The notes under the pieces: generated by a model
The model's database searches: none
What the model was told of the DNA's origin: nothing
The model's input: the letters and a program-made list of their open reading frames with translations, nothing else
Part shown: positions 12,393 through 43,780 of the stretch, in pieces
Numbering within the stretch: the stretch's first letter is position 1
How the letters are laid out: every line of letters starts with the position of its first letter
Program-made: the position numbers and the translations under genes
Assembly (NCBI GenBank): GCA_030704615.1
Contig: CM060731.1
Span: 27,032,001 to 27,096,000, forward strand
Direction of reading: 5' to 3'
Length of the DNA stretch: 64,000 bases
Source of the DNA: Takakia lepidozioides
Lineage: Eukaryota; Plantae; Bryophyta

Positions 12393-12538
12393 GACGTCAC
12401 AACGATGATGTCAGCCAAGCTAGCTTCAAAGAGAAGACTCGACATTCAATGTACCTGATACACGCTAGGGAGGGAGGAGCACCACACATCAGTATATATA
12501 GCTACACTTCCAGCATTCTTGCATCTTGTATTGACAGC

Positions 12539-12940: not shown

Positions 12941-12995
12941 GCAAGTCCAAGATTTTACCGCTCCTCGAGGAACTTGGCGCTAGAGGAGGAGGTGA

Positions 12996-13646: not shown

Positions 13647-13662
13647 GTTTGGCGAGATGAAC

Positions 13663-14277: not shown

Positions 14278-14332
14278 TCACCCCCTCCTCTAGCGCCGAG
14301 TTCCTCGAGGAGCGGTAAAATCTTGGACTTGC

Positions 14333-14734: not shown

Positions 14735-14880
14735 GCTGCCAATATAAGATGCAAGAATGCTGGAAGTGTAGCTATATATACTGATGTGTGGTACTCCTCC
14801 CTCTTTAGCGTGTATCAGGTACATTGAATGTGGAGTCTTCTCCTTGAAACTAGCTTGGCTGATATCATCGTTGTGACGTC

Positions 14881-16014: not shown

Positions 16015-16080
16015 CGACAAATAAATCCGGTCAGTTTTCGGCTTGAACTCCCACGAAGTATGCGTATCCATCCAGTCTTT

Positions 16081-17380
16081 TGATTTTGTGAGCATGTCAT
16101 CCACAATGTTTTTCATTGTAGCTTCTGTTCGATAAGGAAATTTCTCTCCAATGCTTTTTAATTTGTCTTTTGGGCATAGACACATGCTGCAGGGAAATTG
16201 ACACAGGTTTGTGTCATATGTGGCAGTAACCTGCAAAAGAGAGAAAAAGATTCAAATATGTATATTAAAGTAGGAAGTTCAACAAAAATTGTCTGGAATT
16301 TTCAGTGGAAGGAGGATTTTGAAAGTCACCTTGCATCCCTCTGGATGGTCACAAACGTAGGCATATAGAAGTGGAAATACCCACTGTTCTTCACCAAAAA
16401 GGTCTAACAAAGGTAGACCACTGCAACCAACAAACAAGATAAAATCATTCTTAGTCCAATCCATGTCTCCTTTAAGTCCTAACCTTCACTTTACACCTAT
16501 TTGATCCAAAAAGACAATTGAGCTAACAAAAAGGTTTCGAACCTGTAACTGGCCTTCTTCAATTGTTCCAGGATGTGTCCGAGACACTCATGAAAAATTT
16601 GCAGTCTTCGTTCATGTGATACATCAGTCGTTGACAGAACAGGTAAAACAACAAGCAACAAATGCCCTTCATCCAAACCTCTATCCTCGCAGGCAATGTT
16701 CCCAATTGTCATCACTAAGGGATAACCAGTCACCCTTCCATCATTAGAGAGGGTTGTTTGGTGATCAAAGGAGCTATTACTCCTCCAGGACACATTATAT
16801 GGTGCTGCATAAAAAACACATAAAATATGAGAATAAATTAGCCTCTTACTTTTCAAAAGAACAAGCATCAAGTCCATGCATCGAGTCATCCCAGGAATGT
16901 AGAACAATTTTTGGCATCAAAAAATCTAATTTGTACAAATCCAGACCTCCAAAATTGCAGATGAACGTACTTGCATGGCATCCCACCATAGAGCACTGTT
17001 TGGGGTAGAAAACTTGGAACCAGCTTTATTGGGTTCCATGAGTGGAACCATTTGAAAACCATCTGCAATTTTGGGGGACGAAAACAAAGATGCCAAACCC
17101 TCAATAGGATCTCGGTAGTGCATAACCCGACCAATATCTCCCTCCTCAATATGAACCACATGCTCAAACCAGCCATCTTCTTTTTTAAAGAGTCTCCCCT
17201 CATATTTGTCAACATTAGCTGCAGACCTCAGAGTAATTTCTTCCAATTTGAATGAAGGATGAAACAAAACCTCACTGAAAAGTAGATTTATATCTTTGTT
17301 TGACAATCCAATCTTGTTTTTGCAATTTCTAATCCAATGCACAAGAGAGAATGTAGACTCATAATGGGGAATGGGATCTT
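16081..17380 (-). pseudogene. Plavaka-type (CACTA/EnSpm-related) transposase, intron-containing, truncated by the retroelement
   Basis: Across at least 4 exons: HYRDPIEGLASLF...WWDAMQ | ...GYPLVMTIGNI...R...IFHECLGHILEQLKKA | VFPLLYAYVCDHPEGCKV | FPCSMCLCPKDKL...YRT. This is the motif order I recall for Plavaka transposases. Confidence 0.7.
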
Positions 17381-23406: not shown

Positions 23407-25887
23407 GGAAAAATTGCCATCCTGAATAAGGACTTGTATATTTGTGTGAACTTTTTCTCTGCACTGCATGTAAGAAACTTTAATGTCTAGTAGAGATGCT
23501 TCTAAATACTTGTAGAGAAGTGGAAGGGAAGAGTCAGATCAGGCGTTTGTTTTTTGAGTGTAATTAGGGTAGGGCAGACAGCTCGCCTAAAGATTTACCT
23601 GGCTGCCCTCTCTGAATGTTGGCTATCATGTAACCATGGGGGCATAGTCCCTGTGGGATACTAACCCTTTCAAAGCCAGTCCAGTGTAATCCAGTAGGGT
23701 ATGGTACCGAGCTGGAAGGTTGCTGAAGGGCACACAACTGGAGACTATACTAGAAGGTGCGGTATATATGCAATCACTGCACTGGAGTGGTCCACTTCCA
23801 GGTAAGAAGTGCTGCACCACCCACCCCACTGATGAGGCAGAGGCATAATTGTTCTCTCTTACCAGCACAGACCCTGTCTGGGGTGGCAATTCACTGTAAA
23901 GTGTAGTCTGGAAAGGCATGTGATGCTGCTGACCGACCCTTCATGGATCAATGGCCCAGATCAACTACGTAGGAGGGTCGCATGACTCAAGTCCCTTCAA
24001 TGTATCTCTAAGGGCTATGCCATCGACCCGGACATTTAATAACTACACAATGAAAGACATGAGAAGTACAATGAAAAAGGAGACTTAGAGGTGGCGGGAG
24101 TATCGCTCGATGATGGGCATGGGATGATGAGGGCTTCAAATACCTTAAAATTCCAGATTTGTTTTTTAGAGAGAAAACCAATATAAATATCCACATAAAC
24201 AAATATAATAGCTGAATCATTAATGATAATAATAATATTTGACGGCTCCCCAAGGAAGCTTAACTTATGGGATGCGTAAATTATGGTGTTTCTTAATCCC
24301 AAAGGGCTATTGCCTTCCGGCAGGAAGGTGGACATCTTTGTGACACCAATTGGTGGATTGAACCCACATGTGCCCATTAGCAGTGGCTACAACTTGGTTG
24401 TCGCCGAGTCATTATATGTATATATGTTGCCAAACGTAGTTAGCGTAAATAAGAGCCCTTTCCCTTTGTGGATGATGCCCTCTTTCGAGGGTGGGCTCTA
24501 CCAAATAGGACCTACTTGCGAGTTGACAAGTTGGCCACTTCCAATCTTGCGCTTGTTGAGGACGAGAGCATTGGGAGAGCAGTGGGATCTAATAGCTGTA
24601 ATATGTATTACAGGAAGGAGTAGTGGTGGCTGTATGGGGTAGTTCAGGTTTTGTTTCATTACTAGTTTTGATATTAATGTATAGTTCCTTTCCCAACGAA
24701 CGCTGCAAGCGGTCAAATACTACAGTAGCACACATGATTGTTGTTCTACGGGATAGTGGCCATAACATGCGAGGGCCCAACTAATTAATTATGCAAACTC
24801 CAGCTGGAGTTTCTTGGAAACTACTCATATTGTTACATTAATCAATCCTGAGGTTGACACTCATCTTAGGTACTTCATACCTTTATTGGCTCCTCGGCTC
24901 CTCCCTCAATGCACCAATGCTGACGAGAGATCAAGATGTACCTGCTCCAGAAAACACCTAAATGTAGAAACATGCATCTCCAGTAGTTAATAGTCTAGCT
25001 GTAATTAAAGTTGTTCACTTAGTGAATATGGTGATGTATTTCTCATGAAAAAGGCGCAATGAATGTCAATGTCAATGCCAGTCTATCTCTATTCCAAATT
25101 TATTACTGAACACTTATACTACTGGGAAAGATCCACAACAATCAAATACAAAGTACTACCCTTCAAATAATTCAGCAATAAAGTTACCAACCAGGGCCTT
25201 GTCCCCTGTTCTTTAAAATTAAAAAAAGAAAAAAAGTACTAAAAAAATATATGCAACACTACACTACACTTCCTAACAAGAGGCACTTATGTATAAAAAA
25301 CTGTCATTTCTCTCACAGACCTTCTCTCACTTCCACACGCCACCACACCCTTGCCACCTATACATTGACAACATTACACAAGTATTACAACATACAACCT
25401 AAACTACATTCATACCACCCATTACAAGCCGAGCATATGCAAGCTCAGAAGCACCACATTAATATTCTATCATATGGCAAATTAAACAGTAAAGCAACCA
25501 TAATTAATCTGCAAATTAATAAAACACACCACTTTTAACACTCTAACTACTCTGGGAATACCTCCTGCCCCACACTATCAACATGACATATCCCCACGAC
25601 CCCCACACAATCAAACCTCCCCACGACTCCATTCAAATACACCATACAAACTTTCCTGAATTAAACGTTCGATGTTACCGTCCCTGGACAACGGATTAGG
25701 CATTTTTGCGCCTATAATAAAATCAATCAATCAGAAAATTAGGCATGCTTTGAAATCATTTTCTCAATTTAGGCATCTTCATGCTATATATTTTTTAGAA
25801 TTATGTAGGCACGTGAGAAGAGAAACTATTTATTTTATTAAGAATAAAATTACAAAATAGACACCCAATGCCCATGGGCCTTCCAGG

Positions 25888-26241
25888 TGTCAAGTTAAAT
25901 AAGCACAGTGTGAAAACAGCTAGCATAAAACTAGTTGTTTGTATTTAACACTTGGATTTAGGTCAAGTGTTAAATCAGGTGTCAAGTTTAGTTTGACACC
26001 TGGTCCGTCTTATCTTCACGAGAGCGGCAGTCGCGCGGCTCATCTCTCTCGAGTTGAGCCTGCGCGACCGAGCTCCTGCATGTGTTTAGGTTTGAGTGTG
26101 CTTATGTAGGGGTACAGGTTGTTGTGGGGTGGAGTCCCCATAGCTTGGGGTGCCCCTGGCTCGACTTCAGTTTCAATGAGTGATAGCGATGGATTCATGT
26201 TGTTTCTGGTGTGAGCAGTGTGTTTTCTAGTTTTCTTATCA
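25888..26241 (+). repeat. Element C repeat A1 (354 bp)
   Basis: No differences seen by eye from 37024-37377. Confidence 0.95.
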
Positions 26242-26257
26242 CTCGAGAGAGATGAGC
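26241..26257 (+). promoter_or_regulatory. Self-complementary primer-binding site of element C
   Basis: ACTCGAGAGAGATGAGC is the exact reverse complement of GCTCATCTCTCTCGAGT (26038-26054). No TGG tRNA-type start. Confidence 0.75.
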
Positions 26258-26462
26258 GTTATCTAGTGTGCTGGTGCTAAGCTAGATACAATGTTTGTTT
26301 TAGCATTATTATAATATATATCTTGGGGCGGGAGTCCATCTGGCCTTGCTGTTTCGCTGGTCTGTGCGCAAGAGCATAGGTGCTGTGCAGTCCATTAAAG
26401 GGAAAGGAAAGAAGAGTCTTAGAAAAGCCGCGCGAGAGAGGGAGAATGAGAAGGTTGCAGAG

Positions 26463-27011
26463 ATGGAGAAGGCAGCGGATAGGCATTGAGGGAATGTGGT
26501 GCTGGTGCTGGACTTCGGATCGCAGTATACGCATCTTATCACCGTCTTGTCCGACAGTTCTCTATTTGCTCCTTTTGCTTACCTGCTGGTACCCCCTTGG
26601 AAGCCATTCAGGGGCTCAATCCCTCCGTTATAATTCTCTCAGGTGGACCCCGTTCTGTCCATGAAGAGGGCTCCCCAACTGTGCCTGATGGCTTCTTCGA
26701 GTACACAAGGAATCATGGGATCGCAGTGCTTGGCGTTTTACGGGCTGCACCTTATTATCAAAGTGCTGGGAGGAGAGGTCAAGCAGGCGGAGAGCCAAGA
26801 GTATGGGCGCATGTAAATAGCTGCTTTGAAGGACAGTAAACTATATGGTGATGCAGAGAGCTTCTCAAACCAGGTCGTGTGGATGAGTCATGGTGATGAG
26901 GCAGTTTAATGTTCACCAGGCTTTCACATCGTAGCCACCAGTTTGCAGGGCAACATTGCTGCCATTGAGAACAGCGCTGCTGGAATTTATGCTCTTCAAT
27001 ATCATCCCGAG
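26463..27011 (+). pseudogene. guaA: Captured intronless GMP synthase fragment (glutamine amidotransferase domain)
   Basis: [47 protein letters not shown]. Contains frameshifts and stops. Confidence 0.9.
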
Positions 27012-27362
27012 GGTTTTGTGGCAAGGCCAGAGGCTGGGACGGACGGGTCTCTCAATCTCATGATCTGGCAGTGCACTTTACCTGGCAAAGCTGGGACTGA
27101 TTGGGAAGGGGGATTCTACCCAATTGCAATCCATTTCAGCGAGGACTATCCCAGTAAGCCACCCAAGTGCAAGTTTCCCGCAGGCTTCTTTCACCCAAAC
27201 CTGTATCTGTCAGGCACAGTGTGCCTCTCTATCCTCAATGAGGACTCTGGGTGGAGACCAGCCATCACCGTGAAACAAATTCTGGTTGGCATCCAGGAGC
27301 TGCTAGATGCCCCAAATCCAGCTGACCCAGCACAGACTGAAGCGTACAACTATTCATCCAGG
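27012..27362 (+). pseudogene. SCE1: Captured intronless SUMO-conjugating enzyme (SCE1/UBC9) fragment
   Basis: GFVARPE...[19 protein letters not shown]...[19 protein letters not shown]...[40 protein letters not shown]. Confidence 0.93.
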
Positions 27363-27615
27363 TCGAGAAGTCACAGGTGGACCAGCTCAAGGTCTGAAAC
27401 TTCCCCAAGTCTGAAACCTTCCAAGGCTGTTTACAACATGACAAGAAAGCAGCAGAGATATACCTGCTTACTGGCAAAGAGTCAGTGCTAGGAGCTGCAT
27501 TTGATCCAGAGCTACACTCTGTACTGGAGCTGGCCAGTGATGCTGAGCTGTTTGAACTATTGAACATTCTCTATGGACAAAGCCTGCTGAGCCTGCTGTT
27601 GAAGTCGGTGGCGCT
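27363..27615 (+). pseudogene. Third captured host mRNA fragment, probably a plant YaaW-like uncharacterised protein
   Basis: AAFDPELHSVLELASDAELFELLNILYGQSLLSLLLKS resembles a conserved plant motif DPELR.VLELATD.EL.EL..IL.G.S..SPLLKS (recalled, not searched). Confidence 0.5.
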
Positions 27616-28043
27616 AGAAGGAGGGAAGCCTATGGGGTGCTAAGCCTGTCGAGCAGGGGTGTGTACTGGTGATACGAGCATGGGTCAGGGAGCTACTTGG
27701 TTCAAGCGCAAAGGATCAAAGCCCTGGAGTCAGCATAGTCGGGGAACGGCCTCGGGAACCCGTAGATAACTAGGGAACAGGGAACCTAGACAAGTATTTT
27801 AAAAATTAATTAATTAATTTTTTAAAAAAAAAGAAAAAAAAAGAAGGTGTTATGTTTAAAGAGCCTGGTTGGTTTGACTCAGTTTTTGGGGGGATAGCTG
27901 CAGAAAGGGGAAATCTACCTACCTACCTGTTTTTGGGACTCTGCTAAAAATCTATGGAATTTTTAGAGTGTGAGTGTGCCATAAAAGATCCACAATCCTG
28001 TCTCTAGAACCTGTGCTGGTCTATATGAGAGACAAATCTGTGG

Positions 28044-28805
28044 ATGTACTCCTTGCATGGCTGGGGAAATGAGGACGTAATTGAAGGGCAGGTCTCTTCT
28101 CTTAGCCTGTGCACACAAGGGGACAAGATTTATGTTTCCCAAGGAACTCAGACTGATTTGAGTGGAGAACAGTTGGACGAGTTGATTGCATACTGGGAGT
28201 CAGGCATTAGCAGTAGACAACAGACTGCTGTAGTTGGCATTGAGGGCCTCAATATCGCCTTGGACAGTCAGAACTCTGTTGGAGCCAGCAGTTCTGCAGC
28301 TGTAGGTGAAATACCAAAGTGGGTGAAAGCTAGGCTTGGAACACAGCCAAAGACAGCCCCGGGGACCAAGGTGTTCAGTCACAAGGCCGTGGTGTACTGG
28401 AGCAGAGGAGCAGGAGCTACACAAGTTTGTGCAATCAGACATGGTTGCAGCCGGATACGCTCTGCACAGGGCAACCACGAGCGGGGGTTCATCAGCAATG
28501 ACATGTTTGTTGTGCGTGAAGGAGATGCAGTCATTCGCAATGAGGACACCTGCAACCGTCTCAAAGCTTTTGAGTTGAGAGACTATCAGACCCTACCTTT
28601 GTTTTCTTTAGTGTTCAGTGAGCGGGAGATAGGGGAGTATTGCTTTGTCTCTACCTGGCAGAAAGAGGAGGAGGGTTGGTTAGAGCGAGCTACTGTAGCT
28701 TGGGACAAGGTTAGTGGCAGGTTTCTGGACATAGATATACCTCCTACACCTTACCATCATGCAGAGCGAGGCACTTTGAGAGAAGTCTGGCAGTTGATAG
28801 CATAG
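28044..28805 (+). CDS. Orphan 253-aa ORF upstream of gag in element C
   Basis: Uninterrupted ATG-to-TAG ORF with globular-looking composition in its C-terminal two-thirds. No family recognised. Confidence 0.55.
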   Translation: MYSLHGWGNEDVIEGQVSSLSLCTQGDKIYVSQGTQTDLSGEQLDELIAYWESGISSRQQTAVVGIEGLNIALDSQNSVGASSSAAVGEIPKWVKARLGTQPKTAPGTKVFSHKAVVYWSRGAGATQVCAIRHGCSRIRSAQGNHERGFISNDMFVVREGDAVIRNEDTCNRLKAFELRDYQTLPLFSLVFSEREIGEYCFVSTWQKEEEGWLERATVAWDKVSGRFLDIDIPPTPYHHAERGTLREVWQLIA

Positions 28806-29324
28806 ATCAGGATTAGATCTTGCTTGGTCGGGCTTCTATTCTTCCCCTCCATCTCTGTACTATTTTCATTACCTTGTACTTGTAGTTGCCAAAGCCTCTC
28901 TTGGTGGAGGCCAGTCAGTCCGGGGTTTTGGGCTGGGATATTCTGCAGGATCAGCATTGCAGCTGGATTTTGGTGTGGGGGTGTTGATGTTTTGATTTCT
29001 TGTGTTTGGATCCCCCCCGACACCTGCATGCTTGACTGTGCGCCATGTTGGTTTTGTGTGGGCGCTTGCTTTCATAGGGATTAGGCCGGATTTGATCACC
29101 GGTCAATCCTAGAGTATGCTGTCGGTGGTGAGGCTGGAGTGATGACCAGCAAGACCACCAGTGTTTCTTCTATGGTGAGGCTGGGTTGATGACCAGCCAA
29201 CCATAGGAGTTTTTGCGGTGGATGCAGGTGCAGGTGCCCTGAGCCATTGGGATATGACCCTTAAACTGCAACAGGTGCCCACCCGTGTCACTATTAGATT
29301 AGTACTAGAGCCTTATAGTGTCAC

Positions 29325-31250
29325 GTGGAGGAGGTGCACATTGTGAGTGTCATTACGGAGTTACCCAAGGGTTTTGAGGGGAGTACGGCTACAGGCAGTA
29401 ACAGTGAGAGTGGGTTCACAAGACGAGGTATTCGGTTCAGACCACCTTCACCGCCACCCTCAATTACTGTAGAGTCAGACACAAACTCGGAGGCTTCATC
29501 AACAGGTGTGCACTTTCATTCGCCATTGTTGTGGGACGACATGGAGGAGATGTATGGAGCTACCAAGGGGCCTCGTAGGTACTCTGGAGCTGTGGGCACA
29601 ATCGAGTTGGATGACTTTATCCAGGAGTTCGACAGCTGGTGTGATTTGCAGCAGATGCGCAATCCACAGCTATTCACCCCATTCATGGCGTGGAAGGGAC
29701 TGTTCCAGCATTTGGAAGGCCCGCCTATGGACGATTACCACGAGTTCAGGCGAGGACATGAAGCAGAGATTGAGGAGTGGAGGATGTATTGGTCACCTGA
29801 CTACGTCTCCATTACTCGAGGCACGACGCGACCAGTAGCTGCATCAGTACCAATAGCTCCCACTGCCAGCACTAGTAGTGGAGCAGGTAGTGCTGGTACT
29901 TCTGCAGGTGGTACCAGTTCAAAAGGTGCTACTACTCCTCCTGCCACAACTACAACACATGTGCCTAGATTCAACCCGGTGGTGGAGTTCTTCCAGGAGT
30001 TGCGGAGAAATTACCAAGGTGTACGGACAGAGAAGCTGCGAAGTTTTGCAAGACTTCCAGCGCAAACCCAGTGAGAGCCTACGAGAGGCGTACACTCGTA
30101 TGAGGCGCTTGATAAGTGTGACCCAAGGGGTTACTGAAGCTCAGGCAATCCAGTTTTGGTATGGAATTCTGGACAAGGAGCTCAAGAGAAGGGTGCGAGA
30201 TGCAACCCTGTTACAAGCAGCCCAACCCACATTAGCAGATGTGTTTCTGCTGGCTGAGCGGATTGAGCTCAACATGGTGGAGGAGCGAGTTGTTACAATT
30301 GGATTTGGCAAGGACATGCCTGTACGGGGCACAGCTGTCAGCCCACAGGCACAAGGGACTGCCCAACAGCGTGGTCAGGGGGGCAAGGTTGCCCAGCCCA
30401 GTTCCATGGAGCTACAGGGGACCTCAGGTGCAGAGGCCCGTGGCATCTTTTGCAGGCCAACAGCAACCAGGGGTGATATGTTGGACATGTGGAGGACCCC
30501 ATGTCAAAAGAGATTGCCCAGAGAATGGCAGAAGGCCGGCACAAGCACAGCCTGCACAGTTGCAGTGTGGGCATTGTGGCAAGTATGGGCATGTAGATGC
30601 CCAGTGTTATGACTTGCATCCTGAGTTGCGCCCAGGCCAGTTCCAAGGGAACAATGGTGGCCGGGGGCGAGGTGGACCAGCCCAAAGAGGACGAGGTGGT
30701 CGGGCACGAGGTGCAGGCCAAGGGCAAGCTCCACATGGCCAAGGACGCGGAGGTCAGGGTGTTGACCAAGGCATGGCCAATCGGCTTCAGCAGCTAGAGC
30801 AGAGGCTCGCTGCCATGGCTATAGCTCAGGCGGTACCCGGCTCCCAGGCGGATGGTCCACCTCCTGCTCCTGAGGGAGGAGATATGGGAGGCATGGGATT
30901 CATGTGCGGAGCAGCACTACCACTAGAGCAGGTGGAGTCTGCTGCAGCCGTGACTCGAGGAGCAGCACGAGTTCCTGAGCCACGAGGTGCAGAGGTGGAG
31001 TTGGATCCACAACGTGGGGAGGCAAGCCGTCAGGCGAGGCTGCCTCAGTCATTCACCTTGGCGGAGACAGTGTCAACGCCATCCATGGCACCTAGTTCTC
31101 GCCCGACTGTTACCGAGGCGGAGGTTACTATGCCATTGGGGAGAGCTACACGTGCAGCACTGACACCTGCTACCAAGGCTAGTGCAGCCGGTGTGTTATT
31201 GGGGCAGCCACCTCTGTGTGTCAAGCCCCACTGTTCTCGGCAACCATGAT
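29325..31250 (+). pseudogene. Element C gag (capsid-like, two CCHC knuckles, RGG-rich region), frameshifted as assembled
   Basis: LDDFIQEFDSWC; FQRKPSESLREAYTRM; CWTCGGPHVKRDC; CGHCGKYGHVDAQC; GGRGRGG. Confidence 0.88.
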
Positions 31251-31479
31251 TGCGACGCCGGGGGTGAGACCAGCTGCAGTGTTCAGACTAGCAGCAACTC
31301 TCTGTGAGAGTGGGGAGGTCACTCACTTCATCTTCTGCGGAGTTAGTGGAAGGTATAGTGGCAGAGGGATCCTCGGATTTGAGGGTCAAGACTGCCACGG
31401 CTGCGCCATGGCAAGTTGCAGCTGCCAGGTTGACGGAGCTGCCAGCTAGGCCAGCCATTGAGCGCGCCATGGTGACACC

Positions 31480-31900
31480 TGGAGTTGTCTTGTTAGACAA
31501 CCAGGGAGGCATTTTCACTTTGAGTGGACCGGCAGGCAAGAAGTACCGGCCACTGCGGGTCTTGTTGGACTCAGGAGCTCAGCCACTGATGTTGGGCAGA
31601 GCTGCTATTGCAGGTTTGGGCCTCATGGAGGCGGATATGGAGCCTTGTCCTTTCCAGATACAGACATCTCTGGAGGATCAGAGCAGGCTCGCGGCATGAC
31701 ACGGCATCAGTTGGCTATTAGACTGCAGCCGGATCATCCTGTAGATGGCTCAGTGATGCGAGCCAAGGCCATTGTGACAGACGCGTCTCTTACGATGTCC
31801 TCGTTGGTGGGGCAGTGTTATACCCCATGGGCTTCACCCTGGATTTCTGGGAGAGTCAGCATCCTACAGGCCTGGATGGCAGTCAGGGATGGTCCCTGTG
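31480..31900 (+). pseudogene. Element C aspartic protease
   Basis: RVLLDSGAQPLMLGR, and YDVLVGG in a shifted frame. Confidence 0.8.
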
Positions 31901-32264
31901 ACATTCATTGGGGGTATTGCAGCTGCCCAGCGGGGCAAGATGCCAACACTAGCCGCCTTCACAGTTGTCGTTAGTTGGCCTGGAGAGTTGCTGGAAGGCA
32001 ATGCCCATGCAGAGGATGTGCCACCTGCCAGCAGAGCAGGATGACATGCATGGTACGGCGGAGTTGCCTGCCATGGTTGCTCACACTCACTCCGTTGTGG
32101 GGTACGAGCAAGGATTTGCAGCAAGCTGCTGATGGACGGGTGCAACAAGCTTGGGAGAAGCTTTTGTACCGTCAGGAGAGGAGGAGAGTGCGGTGATTGC
32201 ACCAGGGCCACCTCAGTTGTCGCCATTGGACACCACACCTCTTGTGTGGCAAAGCGCTGATGAA

Positions 32265-33215
32265 GGCATTTGCCTTCTGGACTTGTTTGGCGGGATCAGC
32301 ACCGGATTGGCTGCTGTGCTACAGGCAGGCGGTGTGCGGTAGGCGTTACCTGTATGTGGGAGGGATGAGACTGCACGACGCGTCTCACTGCTCCATGTTG
32401 CTCAGTTGGTACAGCATTACCCTGACTTGTTTGCCTGTGTCTGCAGTTCGTGGATACAACAAGCCTTGCCAGCAGACATTTTCCTTGTTGGGGGGCGCAA
32501 GATTTGGAGCAGGTTGGCTCCATTGATCTGGTAGTGGCAGGTTGCCCTGCCAAGGGCATTCATCAGCCGGGCATGGCAATGGATTGCGAGACTCGAGGAC
32601 GGGTCTGTTTTGGGAGATGGTGCGGATTTTGCGCTGCTTGCAGCTTCATCAAGCTGTATCTCCAGCATACATCTTGAGAATGTGCCACTGATGGGTGATT
32701 CTCGGGCCAGGGTGATGGCCAGTGTGCATCAAGTCCGGTCGTGGCTTGGGTCAGCAGTGTTGCTGGATGCAGCTGCAGTGGGTCACGGGCTCATCGTCCA
32801 CGACTATGGTGGACTAACTTGATGCCACCCGCACTGCTCAAGCGTGCATTTGATGGGGTGCAGCGGCCAGCACACCTCACCGTGGATGGCATTTTGGACA
32901 CAGGAAGGCAGTCTCAACGTGTGAGACACGATGACCGTTCGCCTTTGGCAGTGGTCAACATGGTGGGTCAACCACTAGCAGCATTACCTACACTGCTCAG
33001 CTTCCCAGGATCCCCTGCTTTTCGGGATGGTGGACCTGGCCTCCTGTGGGATGCTCAGTTGCAGCAGTTAGTGGAGCCTAATGCCGACGAGCGAAAGCGG
33101 GCTATGGGGTTTTCCACTGGGACCACGGCGGTGCCTTCTCTTTCTGAGGCATCACGTCGTCAGGTGTTGGGGCAAGCAATGGATCTCAATTGCTTGACCT
33201 GGATTGGTCAGCTTG
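32265..33215 (+). pseudogene. C5 cytosine DNA methyltransferase domain inside element C pol (frameshifted as assembled)
   Basis: Motif I LLDLFGGISTG; motif IV DLVVAG(W)PCQGHS (PCQ at 32545-32553); LRDSRTGLFWEMVRIL; motif VI ENV (32676-32684); motif VIII GSRAHRPRLWWTN; ERKRAMGF; motif X RRQVLGQAM. Confidence 0.88.
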
Positions 33216-33699
33216 GCTATGGGCTGAGCAACGTAGAGTGCGAATGCACTTCCCTTGACGTGTCTCCTCTGCCTACCGAGACGGTACAGGCAGCGAGTGG
33301 GGGCGAGCAGGTGAGGACCACGAGGTGTAGACAAATCCATGGCACCTGTGGGAGGTGCTCGAGGTTCAAGGGAGTTGGCAGCCAAGGGCAGCTGTGATGG
33401 ATGAGGTTGGGATTTCCTTCTCGGGATGAGGAGGTTTCTCAGATGAGATGAATGGGGGGGGCCCAGGATGAGCCTTGTCATTGGGACTGCGCAGGAAGCG
33501 GGTAAATTGGCTCAAGAGGTTTGCCAGCATAGCAACCACGGGACGTGTTTCCCTCTAACCTCTAAGCCCACTGGACTTAAGGTTTTGCAGTTACGGAGGA
33601 CATTTTGGGAGCCTGACTTGGGACCCATTTCACCGAGGAGAGAAGACGCGTTACGGCGGTTCCTGAGGGCTTATGATTGCCTTTTGTTGTCCTTCAGTT

Positions 33700-36678
33700 T
33701 GAAGACTTGATGGAGCACTGAAGGGTCAAAGTCCGTATTGAGTTGCCACTGGACACGCCAATCTTTTTTCCGAGACCCTATAGATACAGTGACTGGAGAG
33801 GTCCCTTTGATTCAGATGAGGACTCAAGATCTCTGGGAGGCAGGTTTGGTGGAGCTTCTCTGGTGGAGAGTATGCTTCAGCCACAGTGATGCCAGCTAAG
33901 AAGGATGTCTATGGCAATTGGACGGAGAGACGTATGTGCGGTGATTACCGGCCTGTAAATCGTCAGACCAAGTCCGATAGGTATGCCATGCCAACACCAG
34001 AGGAGATCTTTGATGCCATTGGGCATTCCAAGGTCTTTAGCACGTTGGATTTACGATCCGGATATCACCAGTTGCCGATCAAGGAGGCGGATAAGCAAAA
34101 GACGGCATTCTGGGGGATCAATGAGCACGGGAAGGATTGCCTATACCAGTGGCGGTTCTTACCATTTGGGCTTAAAAACGCTCCCGCTGAGTTTCAAAGA
34201 GTCATGGACAGGATTCTAGCAGGGGTGGAGTTTGCTCGGTGCTACATAGATGACATCATCATCTTTAGTGCTACGGTGGAGGAGCATGAGAGACACCTCA
34301 GGGGGTATTTGAGCGCTTGAGGACGCACGGATTGAAGTTACATCCGGGCAAGTGCAAGTTTTTCCACAACCAGATTGAGTATCTGGGTCACATGATATAT
34401 CCTGGAGGATTGGGGGTACAGCAGACTAAGGTAGAGTCCATTGCACAGGTTCCACGCCCCACGGATGTGAGCCGAGTTCGAGCTTTCATGGGTTAGCAAA
34501 CTATTACAGACGGTTTGTTAAGGGATTTAGTGCCATTGCAAAGGCTCTAACCAAGCTTCCCAGGTGGACCAGGAGTGGCAGTGGGAAGATGAGCAAGAAC
34601 AAGCTTTTCAAGAGCTCAAGGCGAGGTTGACCTCGGCGCCCATCTTGAGACGACCTATCAGGGGGCGTCCTTTTCAGCTGCATACAGATTGGAGCATGCT
34701 GGGGCTTGGAGCGGTGCTCACACAGGTGGATGATGAGGGAAGAGAGTTCGTAGTGGCTTATGCTAGCCGCTCGAACAATGCTGCAGAGTCTAAGTATAGC
34801 TCATATGAGGGAGAATGCTTAGCTGCAGTGTGGGGGCCGTGGCACACTTCAGGTGCTATTTATACGGCAATCTCTTTACCCTTGTCACGGATCACCAACC
34901 ACTCAAGTGGTTGATGGAGTCAGACAAGCTTACGGGGAAGCTTGCACGGTGGGCACTCATCCTTCAAGAGTATGACTTTCAGGTGGTGCATCGACCGGGT
35001 TTGGTCAATCGAAATGCAGATGGGTTGAGTCGCAATCCATGCACGAGCCAGCAGGATGACACTGGAGCTCGGTGGCATGGTGAGACGGACGAGGAGATGG
35101 TGCCCCGATGGCATGCATCTGCATTTCTGTGTATCTTGGCAGCGGAAGGCCAGGTTGGACCTACAACAGGGATGACTGTAGATCGAGTGTCTGAGGACCC
35201 TGAGGCCAGCAATGAGCAGGGTGGCGCCAAAGATATACATGAGGATTCAGTTGTGTTGGACTACCTCCGCAGTGGAGACACGGCAGCCACTATGACTGCC
35301 AAGGAGAGGGATCGGATCCTACAACGAGCCAAGAGGTTCAGGTGGGAGGGGACACACCTGCTCCGAGTGTGGGAGGATGGTCAAGTGAGGATTGTGCCTC
35401 ACCCAACACAGCGGGCACGGTTAGTGCGGCATGCCCATGAGGAGTTGGGGCATTTTGGGGTGCGACGCACTCATAGTCTACTGCAGGGGCAGTATTGGTG
35501 GCGTGGTATGCACACAGAGGTGCAACAATTTGTGGCTAGGTGCATGGTGTGTGACAGGGTGCGTGCTTCATTCAACGCCCCTACTCCACAATTGCACCCT
35601 CTTCCGATCATGGGATTGGGCTACAGGTGGAGTCTTGACTTCGCAGGGCCGTTGCCACTGACCATGCGCCACAACAAGTACGTGTTGGTGATGGTGGAGC
35701 ACTTCTCCAAGTGGATTGAATTGGTTCCATTGCCTGATAAGGCTAGTGAGGGAGCTGCGTATGCATTCTTGGATTGTGTGCTTAGCCGATTCGGTGCTCC
35801 AGCTGAGGTACTCACGGACCAAGGGAGAGAGTTCTTGGGGGAGTTTCAGGCTTTGTGTGACAAGGCCTTGATAGACCACCGCACCACTTCTCGGGATCAT
35901 CCTGAGGCCGATGGCTTGGCAGAGAGAGTTGTTCAGACAGTAAAGAGGGGTTTGCGCAAGTATGGCTTGCAGAAGGGACACCTAGGAGATTGGGACCTTC
36001 AGTTACCCTGGCTTAGCCATGGGCTACAGGTTCAGCAAGCAAGCATCACTTGCCTCCTTCTCACCATACTTTCTTCTCTTTGGCCGAGAGCCGGATTTGC
36101 CTACATCCATTCGCAGAGAAGCTGCTACAGTTCTTAACCTTGACGATCCGGACGTGTGGGCACGTGCATGTGAGCAGCGTGCAGAGTTGTTCAAGAGAGT
36201 CATGCCCATGGCTTTCGAGAACCTTGCCATTGCACAACACCGTGATACGTTGAGGTATGCTACCATACGTGGTGGGGGCTATCGTCCTGGGGTTCGGAGA
36301 TTCAACCCTGGTGACTATGTCTATCTGCAGCAGACTGCTCCTACGACCCTGGATGTGACTGCAAGACGTGTTATTTTGAGGGTTCGAGAGGTCTTGCCCT
36401 CAGGCGTCTTGGTCTTGGAGGGTCGGGATGGCATAACTTGGAAGGACCATGTGCGTAATTGTGCGCCATGTCACCTTCCGAATGTCGATGGCAGGATTGA
36501 CCCAAACCTGGCAGTGGTATCTGCAGGTTTGAGGTGCATGTTGTGTGGGTCGGCTAAAGGGGCAGCCACCATGCTGATGTGTGATCGATGCTCTAGAGGT
36601 TGGCATATGGGATGCTTGACTCCACCTCTTGAGATGGTTCCGGATGGGGATTGGTTATGTCCACAATGCATTAGATAG
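33700..36678 (+). pseudogene. Element C RT - RNase H - integrase - PHD finger
   Basis: RMCGDYRPVN, LDLRSGYHQ, PFGLKNAP, YIDDII; FQLHTDWS, AYASR, TDHQPLKWL; HEELGH..CMVC, WSLDFAGP, VLTDQGREF, DGLAER; PHD at 36534-36670. A few frameshifts. Confidence 0.93.
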
Positions 36679-36936
36679 TGGGAGTGGATACAACCATGGA
36701 AGGCTAACAAGCAACGCAAGGCCCAGCTACAGGATACCTTGAATACACGAAGTCCTGGCTCAAGTTCACAGATTGCAAGACGGCGACTAACAATGGGGCT
36801 ACTCTTGTACCGGCCTCTTGGTCTATAGAGTTTGAGTACGATAGGGACAGTGATAAAGGACTTAGTACGGCTATGGCTATTACGTCTTGTAGCTATCTGG
36901 AGGTAGAGGGACCTATCCACCAGCTAGGGGGGCGAT

Positions 36937-37021
36937 TGTGGTAGACTACTTTATTGTGCATATATGTGTGGTGTGGTTTGGACAGCGATGTAGTTGTGTA
37001 GCGATATGTATGCGCACGACA
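36937..37021 (+). repeat. Element C repeat B1 (85 bp), directly after the PPT
   Basis: Identical to 37379-37463. Joined to A2 through the palindrome GACA-GC-TGTC. Confidence 0.95.
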
Positions 37022-37023
37022 GC

Positions 37024-37377
37024 TGTCAAGTTAAATAAGCACAGTGTGAAAACAGCTAGCATAAAACTAGTTGTTTGTATTTAACACTTGGATTTAGGTC
37101 AAGTGTTAAATCAGGTGTCAAGTTTAGTTTGACACCTGGTCCGTCTTATCTTCACGAGAGCGGCAGTCGCGCGGCTCATCTCTCTCGAGTTGAGCCTGCG
37201 CGACCGAGCTCCTGCATGTGTTTAGGTTTGAGTGTGCTTATGTAGGGGTACAGGTTGTTGTGGGGTGGAGTCCCCATAGCTTGGGGTGCCCCTGGCTCGA
37301 CTTCAGTTTCAATGAGTGATAGCGATGGATTCATGTTGTTTCTGGTGTGAGCAGTGTGTTTTCTAGTTTTCTTATCA
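37024..37377 (+). repeat. Element C repeat A2 (354 bp)
   Basis: Direct repeat of 25888-26241. Confidence 0.95.
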
Positions 37378-37378
37378 T

Positions 37379-37463
37379 TGTGGTAGACTACTTTATTGTG
37401 CATATATGTGTGGTGTGGTTTGGACAGCGATGTAGTTGTGTAGCGATATGTATGCGCACGACA
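37379..37463 (+). repeat. Element C repeat B2 (85 bp), forms the right terminus
   Basis: Direct repeat of 36937-37021, followed by TSD CAGG. Confidence 0.95.
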
Positions 37464-38294
37464 CAGGCTCCAACTACCTTCCAAGCTATGCGAGCAAATT
37501 TTGTAACCAATTGAAACTATGTGTAGATGTGTTGCAAATCTGCACATTGAAAATGAGGATATCCCTGATCTCAATGTGGTGGACGAGGTTTCAGCGGCGA
37601 ACGTTCAACGCTGCTCTTGTGGCTGCTTTTGCTATCTCTTGTTCTCAGGATAACTTATCATGTACTTGCTTCAGAGTGCATTCTGATGGTACCTTGTCCG
37701 CCCCTCGGCTGGACCAGCTTCCTATCAGCTCGATGGAGAGTTACCTTTTACTTTTATGCTAAGAGCCTTTTATGGGAAGATGAAGAAGAGTGGAAGAAAG
37801 AGATAAGAGGTAGGAAGGTTGGGAAATGACAATTGATGCATCCCCGCAAAGTTCGTGAGGCCATAGAGCGGACTAGACAGAGAGAATATGACCAAATGGT
37901 AGGCGAGGCAACGAAAAAGGCAGAATATCATTTAAATGTTGATATTTCATACATAATGTCAAAAAGTATACAATACATTTGCACACATTCAGCCATACAC
38001 ATATGTGGAAGTAGGCAAAATTTGCTTTAGGAATGTCATCTAAGTGGTTGCATTGGATGTCAATATTCCATAAATGTATCATAAAACTATATGACATAGT
38101 TTAGTGGATGTTAAGTGTACATTTATAAGTTCGTAATGGATACATATTTGTGTAGATGTATAGCTTATGTTGGATATACATTATTGTAACAATGTGCAAG
38201 AATACATATATTACACAATGTTTCTTTATAAAATACAATGTCTCCTCATAACTAAGTTAGAGATTATTTAAAAACAAAACAAACATGAATTCGG

Positions 38295-39110
38295 TCAACA
38301 ATTCATATTTCGCCGGCAAAGTATGGTCACAACTCCAACACGACATGGTGATATCATCTTTTTCAACACGGTACTTGTAAAACACACATCACATTTCACT
38401 TTACGTACTTTCGGAAAAACCACTCTCTTTTGTTTTGACCATAAGAACATTACATGTGATGGGCGTTTAGCTTGCGGCCGAGCTTCGTGTCCATCACCAT
38501 CTTCAATAACAATGCGCTTTTTGGTATTACCATGCACCATTCTAGTCATCTTCACATTTTCTTGTATATCATGTATAGAACCTTTAGAAAGAAGAGAACT
38601 CGTGGAAGACCATATGAAAGTAAATGGTTCGGTGATAGATGTCAAACACTCTTTGATCACTTTCAACTTGCATTTCAACTCTTCCGAAGAAATAATCTTT
38701 CACATGGCTCCGCACTTTGACAAGCTCTAACTCCAAATCACCCACGAGCTCAAAATTTTTTGTTCGTGCAATGTCACTCTCATTTGTTGTGGGAACATTA
38801 CGAATGTCTCCCATCTCATTAGACATGTTCGTATCCACGTATGTTGTGACCTCATTCACCGAGTTATCGTTATCGTTCATCATTGAAGTTGAAAATGTTT
38901 GCATAGAAGAAGTCGAGAAGTATCTCTTCACTATCAATTCCACTCCAATGATATGTTTGCATGAACTTGAAATGGAAAGACAATCACAATAGTGATTTGT
39001 CAAGAGACATTATACCAATGGTTTGACGAGCTCTTGAGTTTCACTCGCCACACGGAATAATAATAGGTCTTGGTCCACTACTTGGAGAACTTCATTTGGG
39101 TCTAAGTTAA
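38295..39110 (-). pseudogene. SWIM zinc-finger C-terminal fragment of a Mutator-like transposase
   Basis: VSLTNHYCDCLSISSSCKHIIGV (CxC-x6-CxH). Confidence 0.6.
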
Positions 39111-39989
39111 GCCACCTCAGCAGTCTTGTCTTATTTTTCTATTCTAGATTAGCTGTGTTTTGGCGACGCACCGATTTTTGTTAAGAGAAAATAGAATTGG
39201 CCGCCAAAATTCGACGGTTGCGGTTGTTTATTTTTATTTTTATTTTTTTAATGTTTTTAATTTTCTTTTCTTTTTTAAAAATATGGATAGAGGCCCTGAA
39301 AATCATATTAAAAAACACGACCGGACCGGGATACAAGAGGAAAAAATTAACCTTCGAATAGGTGACATGGAGGCTGAAATCGGAAGACACTACTTCAAGA
39401 TAATAGGAGAACCTAACACACAGGGAGACAGACAGGCAGGAGGGTCCAACAAGATCAGATCAATCGACTGCCAGAAAACTAAACTAATTGTCACTAAGAC
39501 TAGCAAATGAGAGCTACCCGTCCTATTGTTGGATCTGCAGTGCTTCCAATTAACATCTGATTCCTCGCTCGAAAGGGGAGAACGCCTAGAGCTACGAGAG
39601 CTTCCAGCTTGGTGGGGTGTCTTCCTTCCATAGCACCTTAGTGTCTGATTGTCTGGTGCACCTTTTCCCCCACATCAATTTGTAAAAGGTAAGGGCTTAG
39701 TTTCAAAAATTGATCCCAAAGATAGACAAGTTCCTTTCCTAGATGAATGGATGTTCATCATTTCTAATGCTCACATTGGAAATTGTGACAACCATTTATC
39801 ACTAACACGCACGATTACCACCATAAAGAGTATTTGAAGTACTGATGGAAGACAAGGGGGTATTCCACCGTCACTCGTCAAGCAATGTACTGAGACATGC
39901 AAGATATGTAACAAGTTCAAATTTTGGAATGAATTTCATAATTATGTTTCTTATAAGGCGTTACATACGACCCTTGATGAGATTTGCAC

Positions 39990-40200: not shown

Positions 40201-40979
40201 GTTGATGTTGAAAAAATGGAGAATTTGATCCGAATGGTATAATACATCAACGGTTGCTCTTGCAAGCGCATGAGAAGACAAAAAAAATGCAAGTAATGGT
40301 TGGAGACTTGGAGCGCATTACAAATGCTGATTCCGAAGGCACATATGGATTTGAATTACAAAAACAGGGCTCAAATGATAACTTTAGGTCCAAACCTTCG
40401 AGCGAATGTGCTTGGCAATCCCTCTCTTCGAGGCTGATCCTGACCAGATTATTTGAACGCTGACGAAGAACCTCATGCTTTTTTGTTTTTTTTTTTTTTT
40501 TTTCCTCCTCATCATAAGAACTAAGCTCCATAACTGTGGATTGGAGAAGCCATATGAGCTCCATCAGTAACATTACTTGAATATAGTTGCACTACATGGA
40601 CTCCAATTTTGGTATGTACTAACCAGTTCTTCCTCTTGAGATTCCAAAACATCCTATGAAGAAAAAGAAAGAAAGATAAGACTCTGACCGAAGCCGGCGT
40701 AACTAAGAGCTACTTCGCCTCGCGGCTACTGCCTCCTTTCGAGAGTAGGCCCTAAAACATCATATGAAAGCTGGGTTTAGATGACATGTAAATAAGGCAC
40801 ATATGGATTTGAAATACAAAACCAACGTTAATACAATAGTTTCAGCAATGTTAAGCGATAGGTATGAATGAATTGTAGATGATTCGGAGAGGTTTACAAG
40901 AAGGGCAAACGACAAATTTCATAGACGTCGATTGACCGGGGGGGGGGGGGGGGGGGGGGGGTTGAGCAATTACTCCATA

Positions 40980-41960
40980 AAATGCAGCGGTCGCGGTGAA
41001 TTTAAAAAAAAACATAGATAATGTCCCGTCGAGCACCATTATTAAAAATATTAGTTTAAAAAAATAAAAAACTGCAACCGTCGAATTCTGGCGGTCACTT
41101 TTATTTTCTCTTAACAAAACTTGGTGCTACCGCCAGAACCCGCCGTCGCAGCTAATCTAGAATAGAAAATTTAGAAAAGACTGGTGAGGTTGCTGTTACT
41201 TTTAATAAAATTCAGCGGTCGCAGCGAATTAAGAAAAACATAAATAATGTCTCGGTAAGCACCATTATTAAAAAAAATAGTTTAAAAAAAAAACCAAAAC
41301 ATTGCAACCGCCGAATTCTGGTAGTCACTTCTATTTTCTTTTAACAAAAATTGGTGCGACGGCCAGAACCCACCGTTGCAGCTAATCTAGAATAGAAAAT
41401 TTAGACAAGACTACTGAGGTTGCTGTACTTTTGCTAAAATTCAGCGATCGCAGCGAATTTAGAAAAATATAAATAATGTCATGGCAAGCACCATTATTAA
41501 AAAATTATTAAAAAAAAAAAAAACTGCAACTGCCGAATTCTGGCGGTCACATCTATTTTATCCTTAAATAAATTTATGCAACCGTCAAAACCCACCGTCG
41601 CAGCTAATGTCAAAAAACAAAAAACAAAAAACAAGACTTCTGAACTCTGCCGGTTGCTGTTAATTTTGCTAAAATTCAGCAGTCGCAGCGAATTTAAAAA
41701 AAACATAAATAATGTCCCGGTTGTATCGTTATTTAAAAATCATTTAAAAAAAACCAACAACTACAACCGCCGAATTCTGGCGGTCACTTCTATTTATCTT
41801 TAAATAAATTGATGCGACCGTCAGAACCCGCCTTTGCAGCTAATATCGAATAGAAAAATTAGACAAGACTGCTGAATTCTGTCGGTTGCTGTTAATTTTG
41901 CTAAAATTCAGCGGTCGCAATGAATTTTTAAAAAAACAGCAACGACAACTGCAACCGAGA
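40980..41960 (+). repeat. Tandem array of a ~230-bp unit (4 full copies plus a partial)
   Basis: Anchor T(T/G)CAGC(G/A)(G/A)TCGC at 40983, 41211, 41440, 41675 and 41907. An inverted partial copy lies at about 39113-39240. Confidence 0.88.
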
Positions 41961-43780
41961 GCATAAAAAGCAGAGCTGTGGTGTGGGCAACTCTGAAGGC
42001 CCACACCTTATGGAATATCTTTTTAAACCATCTATGCAAAGAGTAAGAGGGTGTGGCTCTAGATAAAAAGATCTTCATACAATGGTGATGTCCCTCTTGG
42101 TTCAGGTGGACTGATTGGTTCCGATGAATCTTCACTCTTAGTTTCTTTGTGGAAAAAATGTGGATAATAAGCTCTCAAATAGCTCTCTCTCTCTGCTATG
42201 TATTTCTCTCTTCTTTCTCTTCTTTCATCACGCATTACCCATGTCGTTCATGTCTCTCATGACGTAATACCCACGGTCTACAACTCCATCCCTCATATAT
42301 TACTGGATTTCTTTCCAATTTTAATGGGTTTTTGGGAAGGTTAGTAGGCTCTATTATCAAAATTCTTGCAAGAAGACAAGTCTGAAAGGCTGTTCTAGGT
42401 GTTAATTTTATCCATAATATATCCCTTGGAATCCAGTTCTTTACAAATGCTAACTCTTCATTCTACCTTCGTGAGTTCATGATAAGTCGCATTATTAGTG
42501 AACTTGGGTATCATAGTTACTGATTACTTCGGTAATCCTTTCAGTTCAAGTTCCTCTTCTACTTAGGAATTCCACAACTTCGCTCAGGTCTCTCTACACA
42601 ACAATGAAGTCCGAGAATAGTTTGCTTTATAACTTCATGATATGCAAGACATGTCGTAGCATATGGTCTCTCAATTCAGCTTCTTACCTCCACTTTGGAA
42701 CATTGGAACCCTAAACTTTGGAACTTTGGAACATTTATGTCCATCTCTCCTGCTCTTAGTCTCCCTGTCACTCTCATCCCTCCTATCTCAGCTTGGTCTC
42801 CCACTATGCCTCGACTCCTGCAATAAGGGCCGATTCCTTCGCTTACCTAAATACTCTCCTGTCAACTGTACTAACATTCCTTGAACCAATCGCTCTACCC
42901 GTCTGCCGACTCATTTCTTGCTCTGAACTCTTCTGTTCTTGGTTCATACTCCAAACCTGTCCAAGTCCTACATCTGTGGTCAAGTTCTGGAGCTAGTGTA
43001 ATGTGCTAGATGGTCCTTTGTAGATTTGGTGGCTGTCAGCAGAATTAAGACAATGACGTTACAAGGGGCCACCTGTGGTGGAGACCCCTGACAGGGATCT
43101 TTAAGTGAACAACGGTATTCTCCTTTGAGTATAACTAATGGATACGAACCCACCACGGGGCAGTGTGATTCAGGACGTAGTTTGGTGTGCACTCTGTTCT
43201 CATCCATCGAGGGTACGTATGAGTAGAGCTGATAGTGATCTACAAGAGCTCTACCTCTGTCCAGAGACGGTCATTTTTAGTGGAAAGCTGCACGGGCTGA
43301 CCACCGCCGCACGATCTGATTTAATCTTACGATCAGGAATCATCCTCGTGGCGCATAGCACCCCACGTATCGTGTGTTGCCAGATTATCCACGTCCATCG
43401 GACATCAGATATCGGATGTGGCAGGTGCTTTGGTGGAGATGGAGGGCACTCTAAGTGCGCGCCACATTTTCATTTCCTGAGATCTTGACCGTTGATATCC
43501 AAGATCTGACGATGGGGAGGCTCAGGGTTTTTTGGATGTTTCGCAGAACGCAGAGAGAGAGATGGGGACACGCGATGGTGATCTGGCAGAGGGAGAGAGA
43601 TGGAGCTGTCAGCTGCTGTGCGAGAGAAGATGGAGAAGATGATCAATTCGATCTGGCCACGTTTTCTCTAGCTTATAAACAGATACTAGTGGGGGCTATC
43701 TAGTATATGTGGACTATGATGGTGGGTTTGGGGATTGTGGTTCTATTTTGGATGGTTGTCATCCCTGAACTTTTCATGTC

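Follow-up and report, generated by a model that had tools for sequence, protein, structure and literature searches.

A DNMT3-like cytosine methyltransferase domain inside a Ty3/gypsy retrotransposon with split terminal repeats in the bryophyte Takakia lepidozioides

Why retrotransposons carry an enzyme that normally silences them has been an open question since 2018, and the hosts known until now are algae and dinoflagellates. The closest described system is KnitGypsy-Dnmt3 of Klebsormidium nitens, whose DIRS-like arrangement of repeats was reported by de Mendoza et al. 2018 (PMC5890265; this and the other articles and preprints are cited here for the portions of their text that were available). 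The same element is named 'streptophyte Gypsy-DNMT3' in a 2026 preprint (bioRxiv 10.64898/2026.05.21.726589), and the hosts are given as 'streptophytes and dinoflagellates' in PMC12344493. A second system, SymbioDIRS-Dnmt3, resembles the element described below in carrying a DNMT3 domain within a retrotransposon, but differs from it in its tyrosine recombinase, its dinoflagellate host and, according to its authors, an independent capture of the domain; it is the only one with shown CG activity, two of its domains having produced CG methylation in yeast, and methylation of the cDNA was proposed in that work (PMC5890265). The Klebsormidium domain produced no methylation in yeast, a result that the authors call inconclusive (PMC5890265). 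Finally, the EpiLTR elements of Cymbomonas and Euglena likewise combine an LTR element, a cytosine methyltransferase and a chromatin reader, but their enzyme is DNMT4-related and accompanied by DAM and a chromodomain, and the preprint that describes them sets them apart from Gypsy-DNMT3 (bioRxiv 10.64898/2026.05.21.726589).

The window analysed here is a stretch of 64,000 nucleotides of T. lepidozioides (assembly GCA_030704615.1, contig CM060731.1, positions 27,032,001 to 27,096,000). Positions 32265-33217 of its + strand encode a DNMT3-like C5 cytosine methyltransferase domain with unpermuted motif order, with a protease upstream and a reverse transcriptase (RT) downstream, in an 11.6-kb Ty3/gypsy element that occupies 25888-37463 and is flanked by 4-bp duplications (CAGG). 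That this is a DNMT3-like domain of a green-lineage Ty3/gypsy family is, in our opinion, almost certain, and the element is a land-plant member of the published kind, its family having a broader range than reported and additional structural features. It shares with KnitGypsy-Dnmt3 an intronless DNMT3-related domain with unpermuted motifs inside a gypsy element, the combination of DIRS-like (split) repeats with gypsy domains, and purifying selection, the value between lineages being 0.117, with dS near saturation, where Ka/Ks under 0.2 was the criterion for KnitGypsy-Dnmt3 (PMC5890265). The two differ in host, K. nitens as opposed to a land plant, and in the position of the domain, which PMC5890265 places in the Pol frame, whereas in the window family it precedes a conserved in-frame stop. 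Acquisition was placed in the K. nitens lineage by PMC5890265, whereas the relatives found here span bryophytes, Closterium and chlorophytes; furthermore, the target duplication, internal palindrome, self-priming and PHD finger of the window element go unmentioned for KnitGypsy-Dnmt3 in the available text of that article. No description of land-plant or chlorophyte members was found in the searched literature, which leaves out most subscription papers, Repbase and supplements that may include them, and the available portions of PMC10952607, PMC11982613, PMC10508981, PMC6453930, 10.1101/363937 and 10.1101/2021.11.30.470311 contain no mention of such members. From left to right, the element comprises A1, a predicted primer site and the captured pieces of host genes, then the gag, protease and methyltransferase regions, a stop, the RT-RNase H-integrase block with its PHD finger, and lastly the G-rich tract in front of B1-gc-A2-t-B2, with the following features:

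25884..25887, + strand: target-site duplication, left copy (CAGG, 4 bp)
25888..26241, + strand: terminal repeat A1, 354 bp, TG...CA, identical to A2
26038..26054, + strand: predicted self-primer, 17 nt perfectly complementary to the sequence that directly follows A1 (maximum of 9 nt over 500 shuffles)
26241..26257, + strand: predicted primer-binding site, not of tRNA type by inspection
26380..27640, + strand: broken pieces of captured host genes, with a class I glutamine amidotransferase (PF00117, below cut-off) joined to a ubiquitin-conjugating E2 domain (PF00179, E 1.6e-37)
29541..30697, + strand: gag-like region, 3 frameshifts (238/363 identical to Marchantia Mp4g09160 protein P0008)
31562..31576, + strand: aspartic protease active-site motif LLDSG (weak match here, supported in relatives)
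32265..33217, + strand: C5 cytosine methyltransferase domain of DNMT3-like type, broken by 9 frameshifts, with an intact codon for the catalytic Cys at 32548-32550
32283-32294, + strand: motif I (LFGG), by frameshift-aware alignment
32545-32556, + strand: motif IV (PCQG), by frameshift-aware alignment
32676-32684, + strand: motif VI (ENV), by frameshift-aware alignment
32792-32803, + strand: motif VIII (HRPR), by frameshift-aware alignment
33170-33184, + strand: motif X (GQAMD), by frameshift-aware alignment
33530..33538, + strand: TAG stop, conserved and followed by CAACCA (CARYYA), where readthrough from Gag-PR-DNMT into RT-RH-IN is predicted
33731..35096, + strand: reverse transcriptase (RVT_1) and RNase H, 6 frameshifts
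35292..36678, + strand: DDE integrase carrying an H2C2 finger and, at its C terminus, a PHD finger (about 36535-36669)
36922..36935, + strand: G-rich tract, predicted plus-strand primer, kept in relatives directly before B1
36937..37021, + strand: terminal repeat B1, 85 bp, TG...CA
37018..37027, no strand: GACAGCTGTC, a palindrome spanning the B1|A2 junction, each half of which is one of the two insertion ends
37024..37377, + strand: terminal repeat A2
37379..37463, + strand: terminal repeat B2, identical to B1
37464..37467, + strand: target-site duplication, right copy (CAGG, 4 bp)

In the window copy the five methyltransferase motifs are scattered over all three reading frames. Frameshift-aware alignment of 32150-33300, with frame breaks entered as X, to three unbroken relatives yielded 251/354, 252/346 and 246/342 identities (71-73%), and the window domain scored 1179 against relative P0004, compared to 31-47 for eight shuffles and 39 for the reverse strand. 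The original prediction, based on the letters of the sequence and their open reading frames, had placed motifs I, IV, VI, VIII and X in canonical order in the protease-RT interval, with the catalytic Cys codon intact; all five could indeed be placed by an alignment scoring far above the shuffles, and the codon was confirmed at its position. PF00145, suggested at that time as a check, was matched by the window's own piece at 32527-32682, which holds the catalytic Cys (E 2.2e-7; 31.1 bits, cut-off 22). The other three of the four domain pieces gave no match to PF00145 or elsewhere in Pfam, nor did the five pieces of the methyltransferase region in a Pfam scan of single open frames, and the motif I piece alone matched no solved structure. 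Among relatives, PF00145 was matched in 9 of 10 in one set and in 14 of the 15 listed in another, one of those below the cut-off. What is expected of a C5 methyltransferase at the domain level, namely PF00145 above cut-off and ordered motifs with Cys, Glu and Arg, is therefore present. A profile built from 25 relatives ranked DNMT3A first among solved structures (E 2e-17), followed by DNMT3B (1e-14), DRM2 (8e-9) and M.HhaI (1e-4), and DNMT3 structures were the top fold matches of the predicted structure of P0004, itself of low confidence (pLDDT 58.6). Judged by profile and predicted fold, the domain is nearer to DNMT3 than to DRM, DNMT2 or bacterial enzymes. Host DNMT3 (animal DNMT3A/B and bryophyte DNMT3, PMC6453930) and DRM2 share its catalytic fold and motifs, but the window domain shows about 20% identity to animal DNMT3, comes with neither PWWP/ADD nor a plant companion domain, is intronless and mobile and, unlike DRM, is not permuted. 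In intact copies, the enzyme is probably active.

The five aligned coding segments of the window element contain 27 frameshifts and no stop; the methyltransferase domains of 64 related loci contain 34 frameshifts and 242 stops. As assembled, the window copy cannot make the enzyme and, if the breaks are real, it must have moved with help from other copies. At 3 of the 9 domain breaks, among the rows shown, short-read contigs from three or four runs carry an indel relative to the window, and many substitutions separate the window copy from its family; the summed depth of such contigs over the element is high, which is no measure of copy number. In addition, 14 of the 27 breaks lie near runs of at least three like bases, against a background of 30%. 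General assembly error was considered as the source of the frameshifts and is unsupported in unique DNA, the neighbouring host gene being unbroken over about 1,200 aligned residues in six segments. Either the window copy represents a non-autonomous sub-lineage that gathered slips during rounds of copying in trans, or it is a badly polished repeat; the lack of stops and the location of breaks near like-base runs fit both alike, and we lean with some confidence towards the sub-lineage because of the identical end repeats, the captured cargo, the many substitutions with respect to the family and the clean host exons.

Because A1 equals A2 and B1 equals B2, the insertion is young, and the suggestion that the element moved recently is upheld by both pairs of repeats. 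The protease-RT-RNase H-integrase order, the DDE integrase and the target duplication are those of Ty3/gypsy elements, even if the protease match upstream of the methyltransferase is weak (PF13650, below cut-off at E 0.045); instead of having one complete LTR at either end, the element shows the layout A...B-A-B. Split direct repeats of this kind are found in the PAT/Ngaro tyrosine-recombinase elements, which the window element resembles in layout but from which it differs by its DDE integrase, TG...CA ends and 4-bp duplications. No tyrosine recombinase was found among the 18 frames scanned with Pfam, which contain an rve and H2C2 integrase instead. Unlike that of chromoviruses such as Tcn1 and Chlamyvir, the integrase bears no chromodomain and has in its place a PHD finger most like those of CHD4, PHF12, KDM5 and ATXR5. 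Fingers of this type are readers of unmethylated H3K4, in parallel to the ADD domain of DNMT3A; the window finger, which lacks the Trp of H3K4me3 readers, may read unmethylated H3K4 too. The chromoviruses Tcn1 and Tf1/Sushi are similar to the window element in their Ty3/gypsy domain order and self-priming, predicted in our case, and dissimilar in that here a PHD finger replaces the chromodomain, the repeats are split and a methyltransferase is added (PMC6317226). The elements from which REXdb was compiled have two ordinary LTRs, and neither PHD fingers nor methyltransferases appear in the available text of the article (PMC6317226). As for the cargo, the pieces at 26380-27640 are intronless-looking, with the amidotransferase fused in frame to the E2 domain and followed by a third piece, and are likely captured host mRNAs. 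By their motifs, we take the first piece to be a GMP synthase and the second a SUMO E2. The distance from A1 to gag is 3.3 kb in the window copy, compared to about 1.2-1.8 kb in related loci, and a 258-codon open frame upstream of gag (28029-28805) matched no Pfam family and gave no Atlas match above 0.84.

An exact 4-bp target duplication flanks 7 of the 9 elements with both ends, whereas three of the four bases are duplicated in one and none in another. The left element end begins with TGTCA and the right end closes with GACA, and at B1|A2 the two ends meet as a palindrome around two bases in the window, L005, L009 and L054, and in decayed form in four more loci; B was never seen upstream of the left end (0 of 22 loci with a visible left end). 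Since a G-rich tract precedes B and a primer site follows A, the LTR predicted by reverse transcription would be B-A, and the A2|B2 joint, which has kept primer-site bases in L042 and L044 and carries extra bases in L029, hence looks like the right end of that LTR joined to its left end. With regard to priming, a stretch of 17 bases within A is complementary to the site behind A1, a length well beyond the at most 9 found in 500 shuffles, and self-pairing over at least 10 bases is present in 10 of 22 loci, reaching 17 bases in three, with different sequence. Self-priming is established for Tcn1 and Tf1/Sushi (PMC6317226), and internal cleavage of palindromic junctions by retroviral integrases has been reported (PMC1905944, PMC1180852, PMC4372172). 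We infer from the arrangement of the repeats that end-joining, before or after integration, is combined with internal cutting, and the circular intermediate suggested by the original prediction is consequently plausible. Judging by its split ends, the element may integrate by a route that escapes ordinary LTR finders. Loci of the frequent 'A...B only' type were also considered as evidence for a second integration product and rejected as such: L018, with B only, has the same 3' flank as L068, with B-A-B, and the two look like a single insertion. Such loci are thus explained by recombination or by repeat collapse in short-read assembly.

An aligned stop lies between methyltransferase and RT in 51 of 52 linkers (TAG in 41, TAA in 10), a set that amounts to about four independent lineages, and in 47 of the 52 the stop is directly followed by CAA; in all six linkers printed, RT continues in the same frame past the stop. 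The exact plant-virus readthrough context CARYYA (PMC4132726) is found in three of the 52 (window, L021 and L077), and the linker of the largest family has CAACCC followed by ATG, so that re-initiation is possible. Marchantia and Calypogeia proteins stop 97-99 residues past motif X, and five naturally unbroken Marchantia gene models of 1278-1281 aa (Mp4g09160, Mp5g06330, Mp5g06860, MpVg00370 and MpVg00540) contain gag, protease and all five motifs and share this end point; from these ends and the stop it follows that in bryophytes the enzyme belongs to the Gag frame. As the methyltransferase ends the Gag-protease frame before a conserved in-frame stop, synthesis of RT-integrase likely needs readthrough. 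The relation is different in relatives P0074 and P0143, where the methyltransferase runs into RT in a single frame, and the K. nitens protein is partial. That the methyltransferase sits within the gypsy polyprotein, as originally proposed, is thus right with respect to the protease-RT interval, but the stop at 33530 before RT means that it is not simply part of one Pol frame.

Taken as a whole, our best explanation, to which we would assign barely better than an even chance, is that the window holds the frameshifted domain of a young insertion, and that working copies package the enzyme and methylate their own new DNA. In such copies the enzyme would be made as the tail of the Gag-protease protein and packaged in the particle; most ribosomes would stop at the TAG, yielding the enzyme at capsid-like numbers, and RT, RNase H, integrase and PHD finger would be obtained by readthrough. 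The protease would free the methyltransferase domain, self-primed reverse transcription would generate B-A...B-A DNA whose ends would get joined, and the integrase would open the joined DNA within the left repeat, at the palindrome CA|GC|TG. The substrate would be double-stranded cDNA before integration, with new copies arriving marked like host DNA, and CG would be the likely context by analogy to DNMT3A and SymbioDIRS-Dnmt3. Since the enzyme sits in a particle-borne protein, cDNA is the simplest substrate, and that the element's own cDNA would be the main one seems to us somewhat more probable than the contrary. Capsid-level amounts are not required, given the one-frame relatives and the chlorophyte-type domain behind RNase H. 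The CpG observed/expected ratio is 0.50 in the element, 0.38 in the other gypsy of the window without a domain match, 0.31 in host exons and 1.0 in chromovirus-like pieces; as the element is no lower than the other gypsy or the host exons, no specific self-methylation footprint is apparent. A more ambitious version, which we put forward as a tentative and rather doubtful possibility, would have a gypsy lineage as old as green plants and mobile in bryophytes deliver DNMT3 at capsid stoichiometry via a leaky stop, with tRNA-free priming and integration of an end-joined cDNA through a palindrome cut inside the left LTR; the enzyme would mark the cDNA and might choose the palindrome, and the chlorophyte domain would lie behind RNase H.

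It is also conceivable, albeit unlikely, that the enzyme acts after integration, on chromosomal copies or the insertion site, where it would silence or throttle the family or its competitors and spare the host. A protein encoded in the Gag frame would be plentiful, the similarity of the integrase PHD finger to those of CHD4, PHF12, KDM5 and ATXR5 is in line with such a role, and slowed transposition is among the options listed by de Mendoza et al. 2018 (PMC5890265); against this, the methyltransferase has no targeting module of its own according to Pfam, the hosts possess silencing methyltransferases themselves, and the domain is kept in both architectures always inside particle-borne proteins, which points to a job in the particle. 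Marginally less probable still is a role in the integration route, in which the domain would bind or mark either the joined ends or the palindrome inside the element (with the left repeat chosen and the right one shielded), or would methylate RNA, with no broad CG marking. Split repeats and the domain occur together in Klebsormidium, whose domain did not methylate yeast DNA (PMC5890265), as well as in the window element, and the lack of any B upstream of the 22 left ends means that one of two equal sites is used. Moreover, at least 73 of 212 domains have Glu where the PCQ motif has Pro (GWECQ, GFECQ), and C5 DNA methyltransferases do not usually have such a residue directly ahead of the catalytic Cys. 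However, the catalytic residues are near-invariant, with the Cys kept in 208 of 210 domains, the Glu of ENV in 209 of 212 and the motif VIII Arg residues in 205 and 207 of 212, which argues against a purely structural role, and none of our results points to RNA.

Methylation of the element's own cDNA remains our preferred, if tentative, reading. The range of the family, across bryophytes, Closterium, Klebsormidium and chlorophytes, would mean that the capture is ancient and not specific to one lineage. Named relatives, host names having been looked up for 30 proteins, come from Marchantia, Calypogeia, Riccia and Sphagnum, from Closterium and Klebsormidium, and from Chromochloris, Haematococcus, Scenedesmus and Hariotina, and the full profile search returned 420 clusters at 50% identity (E up to 1e-30). 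In a tree of 212 element domains (midpoint-rooted, element domains only, 57 of 269 matches left out by the length filter), a group of 81 sequences (support 0.986) holds both the window domain and that of K. nitens, whose gag-protease-DNMT protein GAQ93235.1 (P0195) is 40% identical to the window domain (121/303); the attribution of the element to the lineage of de Mendoza et al. 2018 is therefore correct. The 81-sequence group contains all named streptophytes, and wherever a protein of this group matches RT, the methyltransferase precedes it (14 of 14); the remaining group of 131 contains the two named chlorophytes in the tree, with the methyltransferase behind RNase H in 83 of 83. The RT tree splits like the domain tree, with weak support (0.79, 0.65) and a 169-aa outgroup. 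The chlorophyte-type proteins P0108, P0202 and P0123 and 80 further ones carry the methyltransferase between RNase H and integrase, and P0108 has an additional G-patch domain.

The original prediction had left it undecided whether the lineage persisted in the plant or was transferred to it; persistence is favoured by the tree following host groups and by synonymous sites near saturation, and ancient descent with one relocation would fit better than recent transfer. A recent horizontal transfer from an alga or a bacterium is improbable: although most database relatives are environmental sequences, so that hosts are patchily known, and no hornwort, vascular plant or Physcomitrium protein is among the named matches, the nearest named domains are those of liverworts and a moss (Calypogeia and Marchantia 73-74%, Sphagnum 68%), with algae at 37-47%, the tree places named streptophytes in one half and named chlorophytes in the other, and DNMT3 ranks above bacterial enzymes in the profile search. 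Between the window and 64 metagenome loci, dN/dS of the domain has a median of 0.117 (0.085-0.169), and that of RT is 0.068 (18 of 43 pairs with finite dS), ratios that are rough because dS is near saturation (pS 0.71). A single family, in the form of decayed copies, makes up most of the 64 loci, and its linker is almost the same as in a Sphagnum fallax protein; within this main family dN/dS is 0.5-0.8, and domains are unbroken in only 3 of the 64. The proposed comparison among copies, carried out with these metagenome loci, thus indicates constraint, at about 0.12, between lineages, and the ratio is higher among the decayed copies. A one-off capture of a host gene under neutral decay, like that of the pieces at 26380-27640, is ruled out for all practical purposes in spite of the window copy having captured such pieces and having a broken domain, as the domain occupies the same place in dozens of loci, falls into 420 clusters, keeps its catalytic residues at 97-99%, the outcome on which the prediction had staked this point, and has a dN/dS of about 0.12 between lineages. 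No relative was found in viral contigs, where 0 of 95 pattern matches were confirmed. One 5009-base contig of a second organism (run X9), aligned to 31953-36943 at over 90% identity, carries methyltransferase and pol, and is a close family in another species.

The window copy is itself broken and its kind of element already published. Unbroken gag-protease-methyltransferase frames, listed as hypothetical proteins, are nevertheless present in Marchantia polymorpha, a plant with CRISPR and methylation mutants, and these methyltransferase frames may add uncounted activity to bryophyte methylome studies.

Elsewhere in the window, a multi-exon ARM-repeat host gene homologous to Marchantia Mp6g06260 lies at 47855-53266 on the - strand, and the four matches listed for it have 58% identity in Marchantia, 52% in Riccia and 42% in the lycophyte Diphasiastrum, with a further protein matching weakly. 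Taken with the nearest named methyltransferase domains, those of Calypogeia and Marchantia, this one gene would indicate a bryophyte host, with a leaning towards liverworts. Another gypsy, with LTRs of about 700 bp that are 98-99% alike, a broken pol and no methyltransferase match, occupies 231-8372, followed at 8763-16250 by nested chromovirus-like pieces with a 1339-bp inverted repeat (11758-13096 / 14177-15515, 94%) and related direct repeats. An array of about 230-bp units is found at 40971-41971, with inverted matches at 39104-39235. What we take to be an integrase tail with a chromodomain-like end is located at 57510-58298, and a frame with what is presumably a SWIM-finger-like motif at 61353-61901.
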